Source: Naegleria gruberi
Taxonomy: Eukaryota
NCBI GenBank assembly: GCA_000004985.1
Contig: GG738861.1
DNA: 64,000 nucleotides
Reading direction: 5' to 3' (one strand)
Made by a program: the position numbers and the translations under genes. Position 1 is the stretch's first letter, and each line of letters starts with the position of its first letter. The notes beneath the pieces are model-generated. The model saw only the letters and a program-made list of their open reading frames with translations, did not search any database and was not told the origin of the DNA. Below, one piece after another: positions 18,594-52,219 of the stretch.

Positions 18594-20542
18594 ATGAGTG
18601 CTAAAGCTTCTCCTCTTACTACAAACACCAAACGAAAGTTTGACGAGCTTTATTATGATGATCACAAAAATACAGCCAACGGAGGTACACCTAAAAAGAC
18701 ATCATCAAAAGCCAAGAACAATAATAATAACAACAATATAGAAAGAACTTCTCCTCCAGATAAGAGAGTAAAGAAGTTTACTTCATCAGCCTCTCCTAAA
18801 GTTGTAGGTAAGTAATACAAACCAACCGACGTTTCCAAATATGTATAATTGGCCAACATTTTACAACGCCTTTCATTTTGCCATCAGTATTATCATCTGA
18901 TTCCTCTTCCTCCAACACATTGCCACTTTCTAAGAAAGTAAATAGACGACAATCCACTGCAGTTGATAATGAAAATAGCTACTCTCCATCAGGTTCTTCA
19001 TCCTCTTCAAGTTCAAGGGAGAATAGTTGCGATACTAAGGAAACAATAATATTTATCAAGAAGGATCTGCATTCAAAAGGAAATGAATTGAGTGATTCCA
19101 TTGATAGTGATGAAATGCCATGTATTTCACATAAAACAGTCTCCCTCAAACGACCACTATCACAACAACAAGGATTTGCAACTCCAAACAAGATCAGTAG
19201 TAATCCTCAACCACACATAAGCACAACCTCCACTCAATCCCATTCGACCTCCACTCCTCCAATTCCTTCTAGTTCACAAACCCATAGTAATAATAGTAAT
19301 GGTAATACCACTCCAAAGACTCCAAAAACTTCATTTGCAACACCTTCCAGCCAATCCTCTAATGTATCTCAAAAAAAGATTTCACCTTCTCCATTTTCTC
19401 AACATTTCCCTAATTTAACAAGACCTTATTTATCATCACCTCGTGATACCAAATCTCCATTATCCACTCCAATTAAAACATCCAGCCAAGTTTCAATGGT
19501 GTCTGATAATGCACCTTCTCCTACCTCTGTAAAAACTGGTCCAAACCATCAAGCAACCCTTCCAATCCTCTCCCAAAAACCTAAGAAATTTCCAGTATCC
19601 TACTCTCAAAAGATTGGACAATGCATATGGACTCCTCTTGAATCCAATTCAGAAAATGAAGGAATGCTCGAAGAGTTTGAGTTATTCTGCATTAAAACCA
19701 TCAGAGATCAAGACAGTTTTATACCAGATAAGGCCCTTGAAATTCTACATACCTTCGACAATGACATCAAACAAGCTAAATTATATGTGAAGGAACATCC
19801 AAAACAAATCACAAGAAGGAGGATTTTAACTGACGAACAAGAAGCAAAACTCTACAAGGCCTTCAATGAATTCCATCTCTACAAGGGTTCTCTTAGGAAT
19901 TTATACAAGGCAGTTTTGCCAGAGGTACCTTATTTTGATTTGGTTAATTATTTTTTCATTTACAAAAAGGAAGAATCTAAGGTTCCACCAAAACTCAGCA
20001 AAATTGTTCGTAATGGTCTTTTAAGAGCTGCTCAAATGCGCAATATCATTTCAAATCAAGCATCATCCTATCAAAACAATGACTCTGATAGTAGTGGTGA
20101 CAGTAGTTCTGATGATGAGAATTGTTCTGATAGTGCAACAGAGGGAACTCCATCAAGACAAGGTAATAATAATATAAAGAAGGAATCTAATCAAAATGAA
20201 GAAGATGATTCTGGTGATGAATCCTCTGATTCAGAGGAGGAAGAAGAAAAACTCAAGTCTACCCCAATCAAATCACACTCAAATAGTAATCATATCAAAT
20301 CTCAAACACCTCATTCGACCTTTTGTTTGAGTGATAGTGAGGAAGATGTTAGTTTCAAAGATCATGAGTTTGTCAATGATCTTGCACAATACAGCAATCA
20401 TGATGCTTCTTCTCAGGAGGACAGAGCTTACATACCTATTGAGAATGAAGACTCAACCTCAACAACAGAAGTGTTCAATTTTGAAAACAACGAAATGTAT
20501 GAGTTACATCCTCCAACTCAACTCTTCTTTGATCTAAATTAA
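18594..20542 (+). CDS. Ser/Asn-rich nuclear protein with ELM2-SANT-like region (MIER/CoREST-type); 2 exons, intron about 18808..18887
   Basis: Exon 1 (MSAKASPL...SASPKVV) ends at a GTAAGT donor. The acceptor CCATCAG sits at 18887 and is in frame with ORF 18878..20542. The segment CIWTPLESNSENEGMLEEFELFC...DKALEILHTFDNDIKQAKLYV resembles ELM2. The segment LTDEQEAKLYKAFNEF..HLYKGSL..YFDLVNYFFIYKK resembles the adjacent SANT domain. Acidic Ser-rich C-terminus. Confidence 0.5.
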
Positions 20543-22663: not shown

Positions 22664-22959
22664 CCCTTTGAATTTCCAAATCTGTAGTCATTAATACTAC
22701 ACCATCATTTTGTAAATATGATTCGCTCACAATATTGATAAGGTTGGAACTAGGAAATGTTACAACAAAAAACTATTCGATATCCATTCTAATTTCATTT
22801 TTAGCAATCAACAGTTCACCTTTCATTACAATAATCGGTATTGAAGAGATTTTCATTCCACAACCAATAAAGCAACAAGTGTCTCTTGGATTTTTCACAC
22901 GAAAAAAAAGCGTCCCTGACATTTGCCATTCAACAACAAATTGATTGACCAAAATCAAG

Positions 22960-23946
22960 ATGATTAACCCATCTGTTTCCACTGTGCAAACTTTGCACTC
23001 ACCTGATGTGCGCCAAATGATTCCCATCACTTTCGGCTACACTTCAACCTACGCCCACACTATCCTAAACTTTAACGGAACCTCTCTGTTGCCACAACAA
23101 TTCAACGATTTTCACCAACTTTCCCAAGCAGACTATACCAAAACCTGTCAAGAATTAGACACTCTCATTCTCAAGAATTATGCCTACGAGGAGAGAAAAG
23201 AGTTATTCATGAGAATTGCTGCCATTGTTTCATTAATTCTCTTGCTGCCAATTATTGGATTTTTCATTTATTATGCAATCGATGAGTTGTTTTTAAAGAA
23301 GAAGAGAGATGCTGAATTGAGAGAGAATATGCAAAGGATTTTGGATGATCACAATGCTAGATTGTATAATCCTAAGGGAGTTTCATTGGTTTTGGATGTT
23401 GGATTGACATTGAATAGTTTTTCTGTTCCGATTGAAGCTTGGGAAATTAAGGTTGTTTCACATAGAGTTCAATTGCCACCTGCTAATCAACCATTGGCTT
23501 CCCCAGTCAAATTATACGAAACTAGATGTTCCTATAATAGAGAATGTCGTTTATTTAATCAAACTATTCCAGCCTCAATCAAGGATCAATATCAATTAGG
23601 AGATGAATGGGAGAAACTTGTTAAGGAAATGAATGCAATTTCCCTTAATAATTTACAAGTTTTCTTTCAATTTGTAACTGCCCCATTATACTGGTCTGTT
23701 TTGGTTTCGTCCATTACTCTATTTCTTGCTCTATTTTTATTTTTGCCATTCTTCTTGATCTATGTTGCCATCATTTACTTTGTAAAACTCAAACCAGAAG
23801 AAGATAATATGAGAAATGTGAAACTTCCACAACTTGTGAAGGAATATAATGAGAAATATTTCCTTCCAAAGGGTTTGAGAATTGCTCTCGATCAAAATAA
23901 GGTAAGAACTGCACATATTGATACTCTTTATTTGGCAAAACAATAA
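22960..23946 (+). CDS. hypothetical membrane protein (2-3 TM segments)
   Basis: ORF 22945..23946 with first ATG at about 22960 (MINPSVSTVQ). Hydrophobic helices at LILLLPIIGFFIYYAI and VLVSSITLFLALFLFLPFFLIYVAIIYFV. Confidence 0.45.
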   Translation: MINPSVSTVQTLHSPDVRQMIPITFGYTSTYAHTILNFNGTSLLPQQFNDFHQLSQADYTKTCQELDTLILKNYAYEERKELFMRIAAIVSLILLLPIIGFFIYYAIDELFLKKKRDAELRENMQRILDDHNARLYNPKGVSLVLDVGLTLNSFSVPIEAWEIKVVSHRVQLPPANQPLASPVKLYETRCSYNRECRLFNQTIPASIKDQYQLGDEWEKLVKEMNAISLNNLQVFFQFVTAPLYWSVLVSSITLFLALFLFLPFFLIYVAIIYFVKLKPEEDNMRNVKLPQLVKEYNEKYFLPKGLRIALDQNKVRTAHIDTLYLAKQ

Positions 23947-24004: not shown

Positions 24005-25171
24005 TTAATGTTCACTAGCGGCAGAAAACAATGCAGCAACTGGTGTCGAAACTAATGATTCAGTTTTTGTTGTTGTTGAGCTTTTCACAATTTCATTTCT
24101 CTTTTCAATTTCATTGAGCGCCTTTTCAGAGTCCAAGAATAATGGATAGAAAAGAAATAAAACCAAAACTGAATAGATTAAAACACCTAGACAATTGAAG
24201 AAATGCCAAACTGCTTTGATTTCTTCAAAAGCTGTGACTCCTGCAGCTAAACTAACGGAAATTATTTCTAATAAAATACACAAAACTAAACCTATCATTA
24301 ATCCAATGGTAATTTTGAATGGTGATTGAACTCTCTTTTCAAATGTTTGAGTTTCTAATGAAATCCTTACAGAGCTATTACTGTGATTATTTTTCTGAAT
24401 GGATTGAGTAACATTTTGAGTTGTTTTCCTAATGTTTCGAATAACCAAAACTCCAGAGCTGATAACCATTGAAATAACAAAAGCAAACATGAAGAAAACA
24501 ATCACAGCAAAGACAGGAAAAATATATGTCATTGTACTTGTTGGCACAATTTCGAAATTCTTAATTCCATATAAAATAGAAGCTGCCAAAATTAATAAGG
24601 AAGAAACGAAAATGAATACCACATTAATGGAAATCATTAGCATTTCAATAACTTTGTGAGTTTTCTTTGAAACTGCTCGCATTAGTTGTGCTGTTTTCCA
24701 ACTTGAATTCGAAAGTTCAGTAAACTGAAAATTAAACTAAACTTACAACATACTCTGAATGAAAAATATAATTTCAAACAGCGAAATAAAGTTAATATAC
24801 ATAAAGAATGTTGAAACGCCACCCATCACTTGAATTGCAACGAAAAAATTCCATTCTACTAATTGACCACTTTCGGATAATATCCTGCCATGCATTTGCA
24901 TGGAATCAAGGACTAATCTGCACATCAGATTCAAACATTGTATCAGAACAAACAAAATTGTGAGTCCGAATAGTATTTTGTGGTTTCGAACAAGTTTAAT
25001 TTTCGTGCTTATTCGAAACAAGAATAAACCTAGACCTATTAAATAAACTAGAAATACAATGAGAAAGAATAAACAATTAGCAAGAGATATTGCATTCGAC
25101 CAAACTGGAAGAAATGCACCTGTAGTAACGTTAGCATATTCATTAATTTCAATTGGTTTCGAATAGAACAT
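24005..25171 (-). CDS. multi-pass membrane protein, paralog A (2 exons: about 25171..24746 and 24700..24005, 45-nt GTAAGT intron)
   Basis: ORFs 24743..25171 and 24005..24682 are collinear, 55-65% identical paralogs of 27578..28012 and 26837..27550. Exon 2 extends upstream of its listed Met (…F|WKTAQLMRAVSKKTH), matching the paralog's SWKTARLLRAISNKTH. The splice keeps both frames open. Confidence 0.6.
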
Positions 25172-25536
25172 TTGGATTTGTTTTTTTTAATGTTGAAAAG
25201 TTTGTTGCATTTTATTGCTTGATTCGCAAATATCGCAACTAGTGGGGATACTGGAATCATTACTCATCTCTTGTCGAGGAATCCATTGTTGAAAATGTAT
25301 ATCTACACCTTTCGAATAATCGTAATGCACTTTCGGTTGATGAGAGCAGCTATGAAAATACTTTTATGAGGAGAGATGCATTTCGAAGATACCAACATGG
25401 AAGCATTGCATGTTACTTTCAAATCCCAAAATGTCGTTGCATTCGTCTTGTTTCTAATATTTTTTACCATGTTACAATATTATTAGAAACATTACCATTT
25501 TAAAATTAAATAATGTTTGTCTATCAATTGAGTGGT

Positions 25537-26637
25537 TTAGTTTTGTAATAATTCAACAATTGCATCAGCCAAGTCGTTATAGTTTCGTTTAAATCTGAAA
25601 CCATGAGTTCCACATTTCCATTCCTTAATTTTCAACTTTCCATTCGAAACCTTGTTAATTAAAGTAGCAAATAATTCGCCTTCATCTCTTACTACATCAT
25701 ACTCGGCAAGCCAGACGAAACCTTTTGGAAATTTGGAATAGAATAAATTATCTGAAAGGTCAATAGCACTAAGTGGTGATAAAAATCTATTCGATTTCAC
25801 TTCTTCTTCCCTCAATTCACCAATTAACAAACTCCAAAACATGTCCATTATCATTCCATCAAGTAAAAGTCCACAATCTCTAAATTTCTTATACGAATCA
25901 TACTTTTCATTTCCATATTTGTAATATTCCAAAACTGGATATAGTAAACCTTGCTGAGTTATCTGTGGCACATTTTCTCTTTCCAATATTTCTTTATCAA
26001 CTGAAAATATTCTAATTTGAGTTGTAATTGCTAAATGAGCTCCTGAAGATTCTCCTGTTATGGTCAATTGTGAAATATTTCCATTATATTTCTGATAATT
26101 CTTTCCAATCCAAGAAAGTGCATTCAAATTATCATTTAAACATGATGGGAAAACGTGTTCTGGAGTTTTTCTGTAATTTACACTCACGACTAGGAATCCT
26201 TTTTTGGATAAAGTCAGGCAGAGTTGATTGGAAGAGTCAATTGAGCCAAGCATCCAACCACCTCCATGAATATACATCACAATGGGATAGCCATCATTTT
26301 TGAAAGGTTTAGGTTGGTAAATTCGAAGTGAATAGTGTGAAATTGGTTGACCATTTTCTTTCAAATATAGTTCAGAACTTGAAGTGTCAAATGTAATTGG
26401 AATTGTCTCAATTTTCAACGATTCCGTTTCTAGAGAAGGTGGCAATGGTTTGGAAAGAACCTTTTCTATTATTTTCATTCTAGGTCCAAGAATTTTTATC
26501 ATTGACTTGATTAGGAAACTTCCAACAATTATTGAAATTTTCACACCAGGAAATTTCACACTTTGCAAATAGATATGACCAATAAAGAATGCTACTATTA
26601 ACACGGCTACAATAAACAGTACGAGTAGTAATGCCAT
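25537..26637 (-). CDS. alpha/beta-hydrolase, arylacetamide deacetylase / hormone-sensitive-lipase-like esterase with N-terminal membrane anchor
   Basis: HGGGW oxyanion-hole motif (IVMYIHGGGWMLGS) and GXSXG nucleophile elbow (TGESSGAHLA). N-terminal hydrophobic anchor MALLLVLFIVAVLIVAFFIG. Confidence 0.8.
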   Translation of the reverse strand: MALLLVLFIVAVLIVAFFIGHIYLQSVKFPGVKISIIVGSFLIKSMIKILGPRMKIIEKVLSKPLPPSLETESLKIETIPITFDTSSSELYLKENGQPISHYSLRIYQPKPFKNDGYPIVMYIHGGGWMLGSIDSSNQLCLTLSKKGFLVVSVNYRKTPEHVFPSCLNDNLNALSWIGKNYQKYNGNISQLTITGESSGAHLAITTQIRIFSVDKEILERENVPQITQQGLLYPVLEYYKYGNEKYDSYKKFRDCGLLLDGMIMDMFWSLLIGELREEEVKSNRFLSPLSAIDLSDNLFYSKFPKGFVWLAEYDVVRDEGELFATLINKVSNGKLKIKEWKCGTHGFRFKRNYNDLADAIVELLQN

Positions 26638-26836
26638 TTTTTTTAAATATTTCCAAATAGCTTCAACGTTTACTGCGACAATTTACGATTATTCGTTGAG
26701 ATTCTAGTTGACCGTTGTAATCTTGCAATTATTATCCCTATTGCAGAGTTATTCTCATTAGTTCCAGATCCAAGCAAGCTTCAATTTCTTCCACAAATTA
26801 TAATTTCAATCCATTAAGACACAACTCAATAGTCAA

Positions 26837-28012
26837 TCACACATCTTCCTTACTCAATGAAATCTGTGAAGAATTTGCAGAATTTTCAATTTTCACAACA
26901 ATGCTCGAATTCATCAACTCATTTCTCTTCTCAATTTCCTTCAATGCATTTTCCGAATCCAAAAACATTGGATAGAAAAGCAACATTAACAGCACTGCAT
27001 AAATCAAAACTCCCAAACAATTGAAAAAGTGCCAAATTGCCTTGAAATCTTCGGATGAAGTTACGGTGGAGGCGAGAGCCAAAGAAATTATTTCCAATAG
27101 AATGCACAATAATAATCCTAAAAGTAAGCCGAAAGTTATTTTGAAGGGAGATTGGACTCGTTTTTCAAATGATTTGATTTCAAAGGAAGCTCTGTTGGTG
27201 GGAGCAGAGTTTTGAGTATCGGAAAGTGAAGTGTTTCGAATAGATTGAGTGACGTTTCGTGTTGTTTGTTTGATGGTTCGCATGACGAGAATTCCTGAAG
27301 TGATAATTAATGAACTGAGGAAGATTAGAATAATGAAAATTGCAATAAATGATGCAACGAAGGCATAGGTCAAGTAGTTATTCGAAATGATTTCGAATTT
27401 CTTAATTGCATACAATGCAGAAACTGCAACCACAACCAAAACTCCAATAATTACAACCACAACATTTGCTATTAGAATGATAATTTCAATAATTCTATGT
27501 GTCTTGTTTGAAATGGCTCTTAAAAGTCTTGCAGTTTTCCAACTAGACAAATTATTCGAAAGTGTTCAAAACTAAACTTACAATAATCTCTGAACAAAGA
27601 AAATAATTTCGAATAGTGAAATGAAATTAATATACATGGCAAATGTTGTAATACCTGCTGTCACTTGAATAGCAAGAAATAAACTCCATTCCACCAATTG
27701 ACCACTTTCGGATAATAATCTTGCATGTATTTGCAACGAATCATGAACTAATCTACAAATTAAATTCAATATCTGAATAATAACAAAGATTATTGTCAAC
27801 ACAAATAAAACCTTGTGATTTCTCACTAGTTTCACCTTTCTACTTATTCGAAACAAGAATATTCCAAGTGCAATCAAGTAGACAATGAAAATTATTAGAA
27901 AGAAAATACAATTCGAAAGTGAGAGAGCACAGGACCATACTGGAAGAAAGACAGATGTTGTTACGTTGGCGAAACCTCCACTTTCAATAACTTCTAAAGG
28001 TACAATTGACAT
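26837..28012 (-). CDS. multi-pass membrane protein, paralog B (2 exons: about 28012..27583 and about 27543..26837, 39-nt GTAAGT intron)
   Basis: Same architecture and conserved blocks as paralog A (FLPVWS, RISRKVKLVRNHK, LSESGQLVEW, FEKRVQSPFKIT, WHFFNCLGVLIY, FLDSE.AL.EIEKRNE). Confidence 0.6.
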
Positions 28013-36530: not shown

Positions 36531-37107
36531 ATGGACTGTAAATAAACTTTGGTACACTGTAACTTCATCAAGCAATACAAAAATATTGAACCAGTGGTGG
36601 AAATTTCCAATATTCGAAACTTTCGAATAGCACTGTGAAATGGAAAGTCAAATCATCTAGATACCCCCACAAATGAGAATTCAAGCAATCCAGATTACAA
36701 GATTCGTGTATGAATGAGAATACAACAACTTCTGGATTGTTCAATTTAAATGTCGTTGGCTAAGTTGACCAACAAAATGATTTCGTTACAATCTTTCTAC
36801 AGTCCCACAAAGTCACAATCAATCAATACCTTTCCTTACTAGCACGAATCAACAATAACAAACTGGCATAACATGTCTCTATTCAGCAACTCATCTGCCA
36901 AACGTCAATTTTTATGTCGCACTCAAAAATCTTGAAAAATACATACGGCTGTTTTCACTACACAATCCTTCTCGCATTATCCAGTCAATTATCAATAATG
37001 ACAGATCTCTAATTTTTCCAAGACGCACAAAAGTGTCAGCTGCCACATGTTTAATAACATTGAACCACCAACTTCCTATTCTCTTCTCTATCATCATTAA
37101 AAAAAAT

Positions 37108-40100
37108 ATGTCAAACAACACCCAACGAGCACTGACAGGTCTTTTTCTACTCCTGTTAATTGTCAGTTTGGTCACTTGCCAAACCAATTGTCCACAAGAC
37201 GCTCAAGGTTTAACATTATTTTCCAGTATTTCTGGATTTTCAACTGCTAACAGTCAAATTACGATTAGCACAGCTGTCAAGGTTGACAAATCTCCACCTT
37301 ACAAACTTCGTTCCATCACTGTTTTAAATGGAGGTTCACTTATTTTCGATAACGCCAATTTGACTTTGAATGTTGATTTTATTAGAGTCGAGTCTGGAGC
37401 TAGTTGGATTATGGGAAGTGCCACATGTCCAATTACTAATAAGATTGTCTTGACATTTTATGGATCACGTACTACTGAGAATGAAATTGGAACAGATCCA
37501 TTTGATAATGTGAATATGGGATCAAAGGGAATTGGTTTTCTTTCTGGATCTAGAGTTCAAATCTTTGGTCAAGTTGACTCACCAACATTTACTGATCTTG
37601 CTGTTACTGCTGTTAAAGGAAGTAATCAAATCAAGTTGAGTGAAAGTGTTTCATGGAGAGTTGGTGATTCCATTGTTATTGCTACCTCAGATTATGGTGA
37701 AATGTTGGACTATACTAAAATAACTTCTTCATTGATTGGTTGGGCTAGAGGTGTTAAATTCCCAGATCAAAATGAAGAACGTATCATTACTCAAGTTTTG
37801 GATGGTGGTAAGACTATTGTCTTGGATGCTCCACTCAATTATACTCACTACAGTGATGGAGATAAGATTAAGCCAGAAGTTGGTTTATTGTCGAGAAGAA
37901 TTGTTTTCCAAGGAGATAATTCATCTGATGCTTCTCAATTTGGTGGCCATTTTATGGTTCGTTTGGTTACTCAATTCCAAGTTGAAGGTATTGAAATTAG
38001 AAAGTTTGGTCAATATGGTTTGATGGGAAGATATTCATTCCATCTTCACCTTTTGGAAAATACTGCTCAAGGTACTGCTTTGGGTACTCAATACTATATT
38101 AAGGGATGTTCAGTTCATGACTCATTCCAAAGATGTTACGTTGTTCACGATACTAATTATTTCTTGCTTCAAGACAATGTCTGTTTCAATTCTAATGGAC
38201 ATCAATACTTTTTGGAAGATGGTTCAGAGTTAGGTAATGTTTTCAAACATAATTTGGCAATTCGTGCCAAGCCAGTTTATGACTTGACCTATCGTCTGAT
38301 TCCATCTGATAGTGATGTTGCTAATTTTTGGATTACCAACCCAAACAATACATTTATTGACAACCATGCTTGTGGTTCCAAACATGCTTTTTGGTTTACG
38401 TAAGTTATCACAATTTATTCCTCTATTAATGTTTTAAATTTTAGAATGCCAACCTTCCCAACAGGTGCAAGTGCTTCCCTGTATGCTCCAGGTTCTATCA
38501 ATCCAAGAACTGCTCCTCCAAAGCCATTTTCTGGAAATGTAGCTCACGGTTCACAAAATGGTCTTTTTATCGATGACATGGAAAAGCCAGACGGTACAAC
38601 TGAACAAGCTGGTTATTATCCATCCATTGAGGCATTAATTGATAATTTTATTGCTTACAAAAATAGAGGTTATGGTATTTGGGCTCGTTGTGGTAATATT
38701 GTTTTCAAAAACTTGTACTTGACTGATAATATGAGACAAATGAACTCTCCTCCAGGTACTTCATATATTACTGATTCCATCATGATTGCTGAATCTGACA
38801 ATGTTGGTGATTATACTTTGAGACCTTCTGTTGATGTTGGTAATAGAACTAGACCAAATGCTTACTACTCACTTACCACTGTTATTAAGGGTTATGAAAC
38901 TTATGATAACGGCGGTGCTGAATTGTTGAGAAATGTCACTTTCAGAAACTTTGTCACTGACAAGTATAAGAGAGCTGGTTGTTTGTCAGTCCTTGATAAC
39001 TTCTTCAGACTCCATACTAGAAATAGATATTGTGATTTGAAGTTTGAAAATTCTCCTCAAAGAGTTTTCTTGGATACAGTCACTTATGAAAACCACAAGG
39101 GTGCTGCCCTCATGGATATTGATGGTTCCATCACTGGTATTGCTGGTGGTGCTTGGATTGGAGGTATTGACCCAATTCAAAACTGGGAAGGTTGTATCAC
39201 CAGATATGACTGGAATAATGCTTCAGTTTGTCCATTGATGGGTGAATCACTCTTCCAATTGAGAGTTTTGAATTATAACATTTCTGGATCAGTAATTGTT
39301 GATCCATACGGAGTTTCACACGCTGATTACAAGGATAACTCAAAGAAGATTCCAAGATTGTTCCTTACTGATCTCTTGAGAAATATTCAAGGTACTGTTG
39401 CTGGTGTTCAATCCAGTGGAGGAGAATTCTATATGCAAGCTAACGTTCCAGCTCGTGGTTTCTACGCTATCAAGTTCAACTGGGATCTCCCACCTCCAAA
39501 TCCAATGAATTTGCAAATGCAATCATCAGCTGCTGGTGATTGGAGTGTTTTGGCTATTCAATATCCACTCGGTTCTACATTCACAGTTACTTCAAGCGGG
39601 CCAGGAACACTCAATTTGTGTGACTCATTGGAAGATGTCATTAACTTCCCAACCCAATGCTACTATTTCAATACCACAACAGGTCACTTGTACCTCAAGT
39701 TGAAGAATGCCAACTCTAAGAGTAACAAGAAGGAATGGTACGGATTTGTTGACTATGGTAATTGGGGTAACTCTGTTGCTGTCAATATTACTGCCAAATG
39801 TCCAAATGATTATTGTGGTACTTCCACTCCAAGTCTTCCTGCAAATCCAAGAGAAACTTACAGAGTTTACATGAAGGAAGATAGATTCGTCGGTCGTTTG
39901 GAAATGTGTCAACAAGCTGCTGTTTCTGCATTGGCCCCTGGTTCTACTAGTGCTGTTGGTTCAGTCTTTGCATTCTTGAATTACAATGACAGATTATTGG
40001 ACATTGTTCTCCATCACAATTTGAACAATAAGGCAAGTTTGGTTGAAGTTGGTGTTGGTGCTCCTGGTGCAGTTGAAAGATATATCACTTACAGTTATGT

Positions 40101-41136
40101 TCCATCTCCATATTCTCAAAGTAGATTTGGATTACAATTATCTCATGGTGAATGGGTTGACTTGTTGAAGGGAAGAATTTTCATCAAGGTTTCCTCTACT
40201 GAAAATCCAAATGGTCACTTGAGAGCTCAATTGTACTGTAGTGGTAAATGTAATTTGCCACCAGCAGTTTCAACAACTTCTCCATGTACTGTTAAGAACG
40301 CATCTCAAGTTATTACCTTGTACGATGAAGGAGCTACCTTCAAGTCAACTGGATTTACCAATGGTCCTTATGCTAGTACTAGTCCTGATTACTATGTTGC
40401 CAACATTACCTATCCATTCAATCCAATTTGTGGTAATTCTTCTTATTACTTTGGTCTCAAGAAGGGTGGATTCCAACTTTACAGAGGTTCAGTTGTCAAT
40501 GTCGATACCAGTGTTTACAAGTACTTTGAATTTTTCATTAAGGGAACCAATAACTCTGGTGTGATTGAATTGGTCACTAGTTTTGCTTACTACAATACCA
40601 CTTCAAAGACCTATATTAATATCAAGACTGGTATGCCAACCAATGCTACTTATGTTCAACACTACAAGATTGATGATACTCGTATCACCAGAGTTAGATA
40701 TCCACTTGCTGATATTGGATTCCAAGGAGTTCAACCATTCAGTAAATTCGCCTTCTACTTGGGTAACCAGGGACAATACAGAGAAATGATTATTGACAAT
40801 ATTCGTTTCGTTGGTGATCAAGGAACTGAAGAAACATCCAGATTTATCACTTCAAGTGAAATTAAGACCTGGGGATCTGTTTCTACATGTGGTGCATCAG
40901 CTAGTCCAGATGTTGATCCATTGAAGATGTCATCCTTATTCTTTGATGTCACCAATGAAGTGAGATCAGGTCAAGAAACACCTATTGAACCAGGTACTTC
41001 ATCTATTCCTGCACCTTCATCAAGCAATACTGCCATTCCAAGAGCTTCTGCTTTTTCTGGTGCTTCTGCTATTGGAATGAATATGCTCATCATGGTTATT
41101 GTTGCTTTGGTTTCATCCTTCTTCATTGCTTTCTAA
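37108..41136 (+). CDS. G8-domain / right-handed beta-helix cell-surface glycoprotein (CEMIP/TMEM2/fibrocystin-like); 2 exons, 45-nt GTAAGT...TTTTAG intron about 38400..38444
   Basis: Signal peptide MSNNTQRALTGLFLLLLIVSLVTC. G8-like block (ITVLNGGSLIFDNANLTLNVDFIRVESGASWIMGSATCPITNKIVLTFYG). Beta-helix region (FHLHLLENTAQGTALGTQYYIKGCSVHDSFQRCYVVHDTNYFLLQDNVCFNSNGHQYFLEDGSELGNVFKHNLA). ORF 38446..41136 joins in frame after intron removal. C-terminal hydrophobic tail MNMLIMVIVALVSSFFIAF. Confidence 0.7.
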
Positions 41137-50092: not shown

Positions 50093-52219
50093 TTAATTAT
50101 TGAAATTCCTAGCGATTCTTGGCATAAAATTTTTCATTGTGTTTGCTAAAAACTGAGCTGATGGTAAATCTCTCTTTCTCTGATCATCTGCAGAGGTTGT
50201 TGCAGTTGAAGAGCTTTCATGACTTGATGTTGGAAGAGAGGATGCTTGATCATTTGTTGAGGAAGAAATGGAGTCTAAGGGAGGACCACAATTTGGTGGT
50301 GAAATGTTGACAACGAGAGCTTCAATTGCATTCATAATAGGTCCATAAACTTTGGTTGTTCTTCCATATTTTGAGGAAAAGTGTTTTAGTCCTCTCATAT
50401 CTCTATCCAAGGAATTGAGAATATTTGTTTTAATCAGAGGTACATTTGAAATTTCATTATCAAAAAATAATTCGAAATGTACTTGGGCTGCCAGAGCAAA
50501 TGCAAATATAAAACTTGATAACATGCCTGGGAAATAGGGATTATCAACAATTTCACTAATTTCATCCGCATATTTGAGCATTTCCAATTTCACAAATCGT
50601 TTGTCCTTTGGATTCTTTGCGAGGACCACTCTTAATGCTTCAAGTCTGTGTAAAGCAACATTGAGTTTGTCCATCATTAGACCTATTTGTACATATTCTG
50701 GAACATGTGATCTTCCTTTGTGGCTCTTCTTCATTAAAATGTGTAAATCATCCAATACAGACATTTGCTGCGCAAAAGTAAATTCATTAAGGTCCGCATC
50801 AAGTATTTCAACAAAATTCTGTGGTAATTCATTTCCTGTTGCTATTTTGTAAGACACTGCAACTAGATTGCTATATTTTTGGCCCTTATTCCAATCCAAT
50901 CTATTGTCATAGAAAAATATACTCGTAACTCCTCTCTTCTTATCTAAATTATTTACAATAAAATGTTCGCTATTTCCAAAACATGGCAAACCTCGAGCAA
51001 TTTGTCGTGCTCTTCTTTTAAAATACTGGTCAACCAGTGTTAAATAATTACTCGAAAGTTCATCCTCTCCCTCTCCAGCTAAAAAGAATGAAATATAATT
51101 ACATGTGCAGGCAACAGCAAATGATTCCAAATCATCATAAATTTTCCCTAAATACTTTTTACACTCGTTAAATGCTTCAATGGCTTTGTCTCTTCTGCCC
51201 ATGCTGCAGAGTTTTGAAATTTCAATACTTTGTAATGGCTTAACAACTTACTATTGGTCACACAGAGCCTGAATTGAGTAAAAAAGTGAAAGACTATATT
51301 CATTATCATCTAATTCTTCCGTTCCATTTCGAAAAAACAAATCCTCCATTCTCGTTTGTTGCATAGTTGACATTCCCATTGACAACTTTCTATAATAAAT
51401 ATCTACAGTTTGTTTTTTTACAGAATTCTTTACAAAAGTATGAGCCCATTGTGTTTGTGGTTCCATATTTTGATTCCAAATCATTAAATATTTCAAATTA
51501 TCCTCAATTTTATCTGAATGATGATCTTTATCCTTCTTATTCTTTCTAATATATTGTTTGTTCTTTCCTGGTGTATATTTACATTCCCGTCCATAGGTCA
51601 CACATTCTGTGCATTTCGGTTGTTTTTTATCACATTTCCTGTGCAGTTTTCTGCAACCAACACAACTCAGTGTTGGTTTAAATTCGCCATCATGATTCGT
51701 TCGACTTTGACTAGAATTAGATATTGATAATGGTACCACAGCAGTAGCAGTAGTACTACTATTCGTTTCATTATTACTATTTTCGTCCAACATTGTCATT
51801 GATCCAACAATATTACTATTATGACTAACAAGTAAAACTCTTTCCGAAGGCAAGGCTTCAACACTTTCTAGCCTATTTTCCTTTGATTTTTCCATATTCA
51901 TCATCATCACACCATCACCAGAGCATGTTGATATTAATTGATGATCACAACTAGTACTACCTACTACTCCATCATGATATTGCCGTTGCTGTTGATATGA
52001 ATGTTGTTGTTGTTGATGAAATTTGTTATTCGGGTGTGGTGTTGATGCTCTGTTGAGGTCTTTGGGCATTTTTCTTGAGATTTGAACCACAGCACAAGCG
52101 GTGTTTGAAAGGAGATTGAGAATTTGCTGAAACATTGTAATGTTTATTAACATTGAACAAGTTGATTGATTGGATAGGTTCTTGGATAAGAGGTTAATAA
52201 GGCAATTGCCTCTTTTCAT
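50093..52219 (-). CDS. Zn(2)-Cys(6) binuclear-cluster transcription factor; 2 exons (52219..51252, 51203..50093) with 48-nt GTAAGT...CTGCAG intron
   Basis: CVGCRKLHRKCDKKQPKCTECVTYGRECKY is a canonical GAL4-type Cys6 cluster. ORF 50093..51202 (MGRRDKAIEAF...) is in frame after the intron is removed (…ALCDQ|Y MGRRD…). Q-rich N-terminal region. Confidence 0.75.

Follow-up and report, generated by a model that had tools for sequence, protein, structure and literature searches.

What are the two similar membrane-protein genes that bracket an esterase gene in a 64,000-nt stretch of Naegleria gruberi nuclear DNA (the window, to which all positions below refer unless another contig is named), and do the three genes belong together? 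The two genes, hereafter gene A (24005..25171) and gene B (26837..28012), are old tandem paralogues of an apparently Heterolobosea-restricted family of ~370-aa seven-transmembrane (7TM) proteins that may act as receptors; this reading as a whole is somewhat more likely than not. The argument runs from the gene structures, through the family and its predicted fold, to the proposed function and the rivals to it.

Gene structures and the mini-intron

The first-pass annotation had placed two collinear two-exon genes on the minus strand, and every element sits where it had been put. The features of the two genes are the following.

24005..25171, minus strand: gene A, whole; two exons, one intron, 373 aa when spliced
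24747..25171, minus strand: gene A, exon 1; ATG at 25171, ends on the TT of a split Phe codon; match to the family hidden Markov model (HMM) at 4.4e-39
24702..24746, minus strand: gene A, intron; 45 nt, GTAAGT...CAAG, phase 2
24005..24701, minus strand: gene A, exon 2; stop codon TAA at 24005..24007; family HMM match at 8.4e-57
26837..28012, minus strand: gene B, whole; two exons, one intron, 378 aa when spliced
27582..28012, minus strand: gene B, exon 1; ATG at 28012; family HMM match at 1.8e-37
27543..27581, minus strand: gene B, intron; 39 nt, GTAAGT...CTAG, phase 2; also used by the deposited gene model
26837..27542, minus strand: gene B, exon 2; stop codon TGA at 26837..26839; family HMM match at 2.5e-58
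27773..27940, minus strand: in-frame stretch in gene B; 168 nt, GTATGG...TTCAG, spliced out by the deposited model NAEGRDRAFT_66269

Exon 1 of gene A encodes an N-terminal tail with an NVT sequon, transmembrane helix 1 (TM1), intracellular loop 1 (ICL1), TM2, extracellular loop 1 (ECL1) and TM3, while exon 2 encodes ICL2, followed by TM4–TM7 and the C-terminal tail. The spliced products of genes A and B are identical at 220 of 381 positions of a global alignment (58%), inside the range of roughly 55–65% that had been estimated at first reading, and all six conserved blocks quoted on that occasion are identical between the two proteins. When either copy is searched with the other by tblastn, E is 1e-121 to 3e-143, far beyond chance. 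A scan of the window with the family HMM found no further copies.

The intron lengths of 39 and 45 nt proposed at the outset are borne out by frame analysis. Specifically, the 45-nt acceptor of gene A is the only one among all AG sites at ≤100 nt that restores the frame, and the 39-nt acceptor of gene B is the first that keeps it. Both introns split a TTT Phe codon after its second T, the spliced junction reads F followed by WKTA in both proteins, and in both genes a TAA is formed in frame at the donor, so that read-through stops there. The identical Phe codon is split, in phase 2, in five genes from four species (gene A, gene B and genes of Willaertia, N. lovaniensis and N. fowleri); the N. 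fowleri member, only ~20% identical, has a GTAAGT intron in this same codon. The intron measures 39 nt in gene B, 45 nt in gene A, 51 nt in the Willaertia magna ortholog and 59 nt in the N. lovaniensis paralog P0002. Intron interiors are unrelated among the homologues, and the flanking exon sequence (ATGTT before the intron, TTGGAAAAC after it) is conserved. In the databases, 16 independent proteins terminate in ...FxQxxL, as is produced by read-through to the intron's stop, and many other entries begin right after the junction, while the full-length models P0002 and P0003 span it (FWKTA/FWSTA). Other long pairs of open reading frames (ORFs) in the window are joined by similar GTAAGT introns of 45–48 nt.

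On this comparison, the two-exon models of genes A and B are almost certainly correct, and the intron would be a short phase-2 spliceosomal intron that dates from the origin of the family and interrupts the codon of an invariant Phe where TM3 ends. The opposite reading, in which the ORFs of each pair are small genes in their own right, or gene A is a copy decaying into a pseudogene, and the 'introns' are intergenic spacers, draws on the facts that the deposited annotation covers just exon 2 of gene A and that many database entries are single-exon fragments. It is exceedingly improbable given the split at one invariant Phe codon and one phase across the five genes and four species, and given paralogs with full-length models. 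Moreover, exon 1 alone would yield three transmembrane helices and exon 2 alone four, whereas the joined product yields one confident 7TM bundle, and both copies have intact frames and a ratio of nonsynonymous to synonymous distance (dN/dS) well below 1.

The public models of both genes are wrong, being truncated or mis-spliced. The model of gene A (NAEGRDRAFT_66267, XP_002678678.1; 225 aa) holds only part of exon 2, from an internal Met, and that of gene B (NAEGRDRAFT_66269, XP_002678680.1; 322 aa, 99% identical to gene B) splices out 27773..27940, which encodes 56 conserved residues comprising TM1, ICL1 and most of TM2. This stretch is most likely coding and not an intron, because it is collinear and conserved in all full-length relatives (gene A, the Willaertia ortholog, P0002, P0003 and P0010) and carries the family-conserved positions S31, N34, S35, K63, N65, K67 and Q80. 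A literature search under the locus tags found no paper. The present structures thus correct two public N. gruberi gene models. Gene callers systematically split the family at the conserved mini-intron; therefore, proteome surveys of 7TM proteins that count helices will have missed most members.

Range, age and predicted fold of the family

HMMER, run exhaustively over 1.84 billion representatives, returned 102 family representatives at E ≤ 1e-3, of which 30 at E ≤ 1e-30. All named members, the weakest matches included, come from N. gruberi, N. lovaniensis, N. fowleri and Willaertia magna, and the remainder lie on environmental contigs; a further indexed protein search with a diverse profile at E ≤ 10 gave nothing outside the family. 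As far as can be seen, the family thus appears to be restricted to Heterolobosea. N. lovaniensis alone accounts for ~22 locus tags, among which are near-identical pairs, and for some 18 or more loci; several of its members are near-identical on a large and a small contig and may be haplotigs. Two N. lovaniensis members, C9374_007817 and C9374_007818 (P0017 and P0026), are adjacent on one contig, which suggests further tandem pairs. A separate observation concerns P0002, which lies within a run of signalling genes (PYSW02000049.1, 7756..21544): a gene with an RGS domain is directly upstream, followed by a hybrid histidine kinase/response regulator, a guanylate cyclase and two Ras/Roc GTPases. 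This clustering may be due to chance, and the family profile does not match the membrane part of the RGS gene.

In a neighbour-joining tree of 30 family members, A and B are mutually closest among the N. gruberi genes. Gene A is nevertheless closer to the Willaertia gene (70% identical overall, 82% in the exon-2 core) than to gene B (58% overall, 56% in the same core). Nei-Gojobori distances give the same ranking, with dN 0.19, dS 0.83 and dN/dS ~0.23 for A–Willaertia, dN 0.30, dS 2.4 and dN/dS ~0.12 for A–B, and dN 0.30 and dS 2.7 for B–Willaertia. Because gene B lies farther from gene A than the Willaertia gene does, these distances place the duplication as an old one, before the Naegleria/Willaertia split; a recent duplication is rejected by the same contrast in dS (~2.4 versus 0.83). 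Both copies are under purifying selection. The Willaertia magna ortholog (JBEGDK010000149.1, 9353..10507) has two exons and encodes 367 aa, of which the deposited 168-aa model represents the last part only. Its dS of ~0.83 from gene A is surprisingly low across genera, and its flanks are not syntenic with the window. An ortholog of gene A as close as that of Willaertia was not found in N. lovaniensis or N. fowleri.

Hydropathy analysis gives seven transmembrane segments. Lys and Arg are concentrated in loops 1, 3 and 5 and in the tail, a charge bias that corresponds to an extracellular N-terminus and a cytoplasmic C-terminus. The N-terminal tail is ~20–25 residues long and contains an N-x-T sequon in ~80% of members, and ECL3 has 8 residues. 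With this topology, the earlier description of conserved polar motifs inside helices holds only in part, since several of them fall in loops: KLVRNHK forms ICL1, SESGQLVEW forms ECL1, FEKRVQSPFKIT lies at the ICL3/TM6 junction, and EIEKRNE follows TM7.

Family-wide, conservation is highest in the cytoplasmic loops and TM7 and lowest in the extracellular loops: the relative entropy is 2.24 bits in ICL1, 2.10 in ICL2 and 2.53 in TM7, versus 1.10–1.18 in ECL1–3. Invariant positions are F144 (the split codon), L283 and P335. The end of TM3 reads I-x-x-F-[VI]-Q-x-x-F, with no conserved Arg. The end of TM7 reads [Y/N/H]-P-[L/M]-F, in which the residue before P335 is Y in 23, N in 22 and H in 15 of 71 sequences, and F stands at +2. 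The C-terminal tail is fairly rich in Ser and Thr (19–29%), and ICL3 is long.

Structures were predicted with AlphaFold2 (AF2). The first model, of P0003, has seven helices at moderate confidence, with a mean predicted local distance difference test score (pLDDT) of 67. The second, of P0002, was built from a 54-sequence alignment and has 250 residues with pLDDT ≥ 90 and a predicted template modelling score (pTM) of 0.71; it displays seven long helices and a disordered tail, and a small beta-bridge connects the N-terminal segment with ECL1. The model superposes on solved G-protein-coupled receptor (GPCR) or rhodopsin bundles, at a sequence identity to the structural matches of 3–13%, and the top Foldseek matches are all class A GPCRs but weak, the best at E 5e-3. 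The models thus make it very probable that the family has a 7TM fold of the GPCR/rhodopsin type. In this modelling, the fold class is well supported, but the assignment to a particular family is not.

Proposed function, rival readings and the neighbouring genes

Of the two functions suggested by the first-pass annotation, transporter or receptor-like, the receptor-like one is favoured because the proteins have exactly seven transmembrane helices with a GPCR/rhodopsin-type fold, and the transporter one finds no support. The combination of features suggests that the proteins act as membrane receptors, a proposal that we consider evenly balanced. In the mechanism that we envisage, the short glycosylated N-terminus and ECL1 would form an extracellular lid over the helical bundle, and the bundle would hold a conserved polar network of N34 (TM1), Q80 and R87 (TM2), Q/E294 (TM6) and N318 (TM7). 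The most conserved surface would be the cytoplasmic face, comprising the KxNxK motif of ICL1, the F-W/L-x-T motif of ICL2, the end of TM5, the ICL3/TM6 junction and the TM7 proline. Varied inputs could thereby enter through the variable extracellular loops and be passed to one common cytoplasmic partner.

The partner that appeals most would be a heterotrimeric G protein, since G-alpha subunits are numerous in Naegleria and yet a single candidate GPCR has been recognised there. In particular, N. fowleri has been reported to possess a single GPCR candidate of the cAR-like type, G-alpha subunits with slow exchange, and arrestin-like genes (PMC9283941). The same study describes many G-alpha subunits in Naegleria, some of which need an exchange factor, together with 28 7TM-RGS proteins, and mentions other 7TM proteins without similarity to known receptors, the data for which are not displayed (PMC9283941). 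Coupling of the present family to a heterotrimeric G protein is putative, and we propose it tentatively. More speculative still is the idea that the family, at some 18 or more genes in each Naegleria genome, constitutes the missing GPCR repertoire of Naegleria and provides ligand-activated exchange factors for the slow-exchange G-alpha subunits. If true, it would represent a separate class of GPCR that arose outside unikonts. The family offers concrete candidates for the receptor gap of Naegleria, and it includes proteins of the pathogen N. fowleri.

Several results weigh against a receptor role or against the evidence on which it is built. The structures modelled are those of the paralogs P0003 and P0002, which are 37–45% identical to gene B, and not those of A or B, and the case for splicing, though strong, rests on comparative evidence. 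As had been anticipated at first reading, the family has no named homolog: genes A and B and 30 relatives (32 members tested) match no Pfam family, including no GPCR family, and profile searches against all PDB sequences returned only noise. For class A GPCRs in particular, A, B and the 30 relatives give no match to 7tm_1, and the hallmarks of the class are missing, with no E/DRY motif and no CWxP motif (in mid-TM6, both the P and the W fraction are 0). In addition, the flanking genes of the window are not signalling-related (XPG nuclease, BTB, G8/CEMIP, ornithine decarboxylase, Zn2Cys6, LRR and ABC-2).

In the main rival to a receptor, the family would serve on internal membranes as a 7TM scaffold or in trafficking, in the manner of TOM1/THH1 or GOST proteins, and would recruit small GTPases or cargo. 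We regard this role as unlikely, as the Pfam models for THH1/TOM1/TOM3 and Lung_7-TM_R match none of the 32 members, an N. fowleri protein among them giving none even at E ≤ 10, and as GOST proteins carry a large luminal GOLD domain, against an N-terminal tail of ~25 residues here. Less likely than an endomembrane role, and quite improbable in itself, is a seven-helix transporter, channel or pump; no transporter fold occurs among the top 60 structural matches of the P0002 model, and the P0003 model gives the same picture. A further reading takes in the gene that separates A from B.

25537..26637, minus strand: esterase/lipase gene; single exon, 366 aa, XP_002678679.1; Abhydrolase_3 (HSL/AADAC-like)

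The first-pass annotation had recognised a membrane-anchored AADAC-like esterase between A and B on the same strand, and the Pfam match, the motifs and the anchor all agree with it. The protein matches PF07859 at 4.6e-38 over 208 of 210 profile positions, its translation contains IHGGGW, GESSG, DVVRDEG and GTHGF (oxyanion, nucleophile, and triad Asp and His), and its ORF is intact, with an N-terminal hydrophobic membrane anchor; by profile and motifs it is of the HSL/AADAC type (Abhydrolase_3). The esterase might make up one functional unit with the two 7TM genes, such as a receptor pair with a ligand-processing esterase, whose order is kept by selection; the location of all three genes on one strand with spacers of 365 and 199 nt, and the membrane anchor of the esterase, would fit such a unit. 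The synteny check proposed with the first-pass annotation, namely whether the esterase is always embedded in the pair, came out negative for Willaertia, N. lovaniensis and N. fowleri. Specifically, the 10 kb on each side of the Willaertia ortholog of gene A contain no esterase and no second copy and show no similarity to the window, and an esterase is likewise missing from those paralog loci of N. lovaniensis and N. fowleri that were inspected. Co-transcription of neighbours is, moreover, not normal in eukaryotes, and a functional unit is accordingly very improbable. Because it is missing beside the Willaertia ortholog and beside the examined N. lovaniensis and N. fowleri paralogs, the esterase is an independent, unrelated neighbour and not part of a conserved module.

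Other observations concern the remainder of the window. Just downstream of gene A, a 333-aa ORF on the plus strand (22945..23946) has no Pfam match and shows an apparent internal duplication, in which a hydrophobic helix and, ~25–30 residues on, the pattern Y-N-x-K...P-K-G-x-x-x-x-L-D occur twice. A 45-nt phase-2 GTAAGT intron candidate at 38400..38444 (plus strand) lies between the ORFs 37033..38403 and 38446..41136; its splicing would join a G8 and CEMIP beta-helix ORF (456 aa) with an 896-aa ORF into a CEMIP/TMEM2-like protein of ~1,350 aa, a gene that is split in the ORF track. On the minus strand, a 48-nt phase-2 GTAAGT intron candidate at 51204..51251 between the ORFs 51251..52219 and 50093..51202 would join an ORF with a Zn(2)-Cys(6) 'fungal' cluster (PF00172, 1.1e-08) to one of 369 aa for which Pfam gives no match; to find a Zn2Cys6 regulator in a heterolobosean is noteworthy. 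A candidate 80-nt GTAAGT intron at 18808..18887 (plus strand) would link a 99-codon open frame to the 554-aa ORF 18878..20542, the 5′ end of which may be under-called. The window is depleted in CpG (observed/expected 0.44), and the commonest CpG context is TTCGAA, with 50 occurrences versus ~18–22 expected; it is present in the introns of both gene A and gene B.

Comparison with known 7TM systems

The present proteins form a 7TM family that is lineage-restricted and uncurated and belongs to the GPCR fold class; they are not a new kind of system. By predicted fold they resemble GPCRs of class D (Ste2), class C (GPR156/GABA-B) and class A, but they have no sequence similarity to any Pfam GPCR family. 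The end of TM7 recalls the NPxxY motif of class A in position, P335 lying near the cytoplasmic end, but the motif differs, with F at +2 in place of Y at +3.

Four other 7TM groups were considered and rejected. Microbial (type I) rhodopsins are excluded by a Lys fraction of 0.00 in every TM7 column (312–336, ~71 sequences) and by the lack of a Bac_rhodopsin match; with no TM7 lysine there is no retinal attachment, and the family members are therefore not retinal proteins. PAQR/CREST hydrolases have a cytoplasmic N-terminus and metal-site motifs of conserved His, Asp and Ser, and conserved His clusters do not occur in the present family. GOST proteins (TMEM87A/B, GPR107 and GPR108) differ in the GOLD domain, for which the N-terminal tail of ~20–25 residues leaves no counterpart here, and no Lung_7-TM_R match was obtained. 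The RSF orphan GPCRs of choanoflagellates are characterised by an additional short helix, placed between TM6 and TM7 and bearing the motif NxLQxxMNxL (PMC12716839); in the present family, ECL3 has 8 residues and the models contain no helix between TM6 and TM7.

In general architecture, the family is like both RSF and THH1/TOM1/TOM3, the plant tobamovirus multiplication proteins, in that its members are 7TM-only, of similar size, carry no domains besides and are functionally orphan. In UniRef, a distant member from N. fowleri bears the name 'THH1/TOM1/TOM3 domain-containing'; PF06454 matches none of 24 members at E ≤ 0.1 and none of 8 more, this protein included, at E ≤ 10.

The remaining comparison is with the 7TM-RGS proteins of Naegleria (PMC9283941). 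The two groups differ in that no RGS domain occurs in any family member tested, and the RGS gene that adjoins one N. lovaniensis family paralog does not match the family profile. They are alike in being 7TM families that have expanded in Naegleria and for which the sensing of extracellular cues is proposed.

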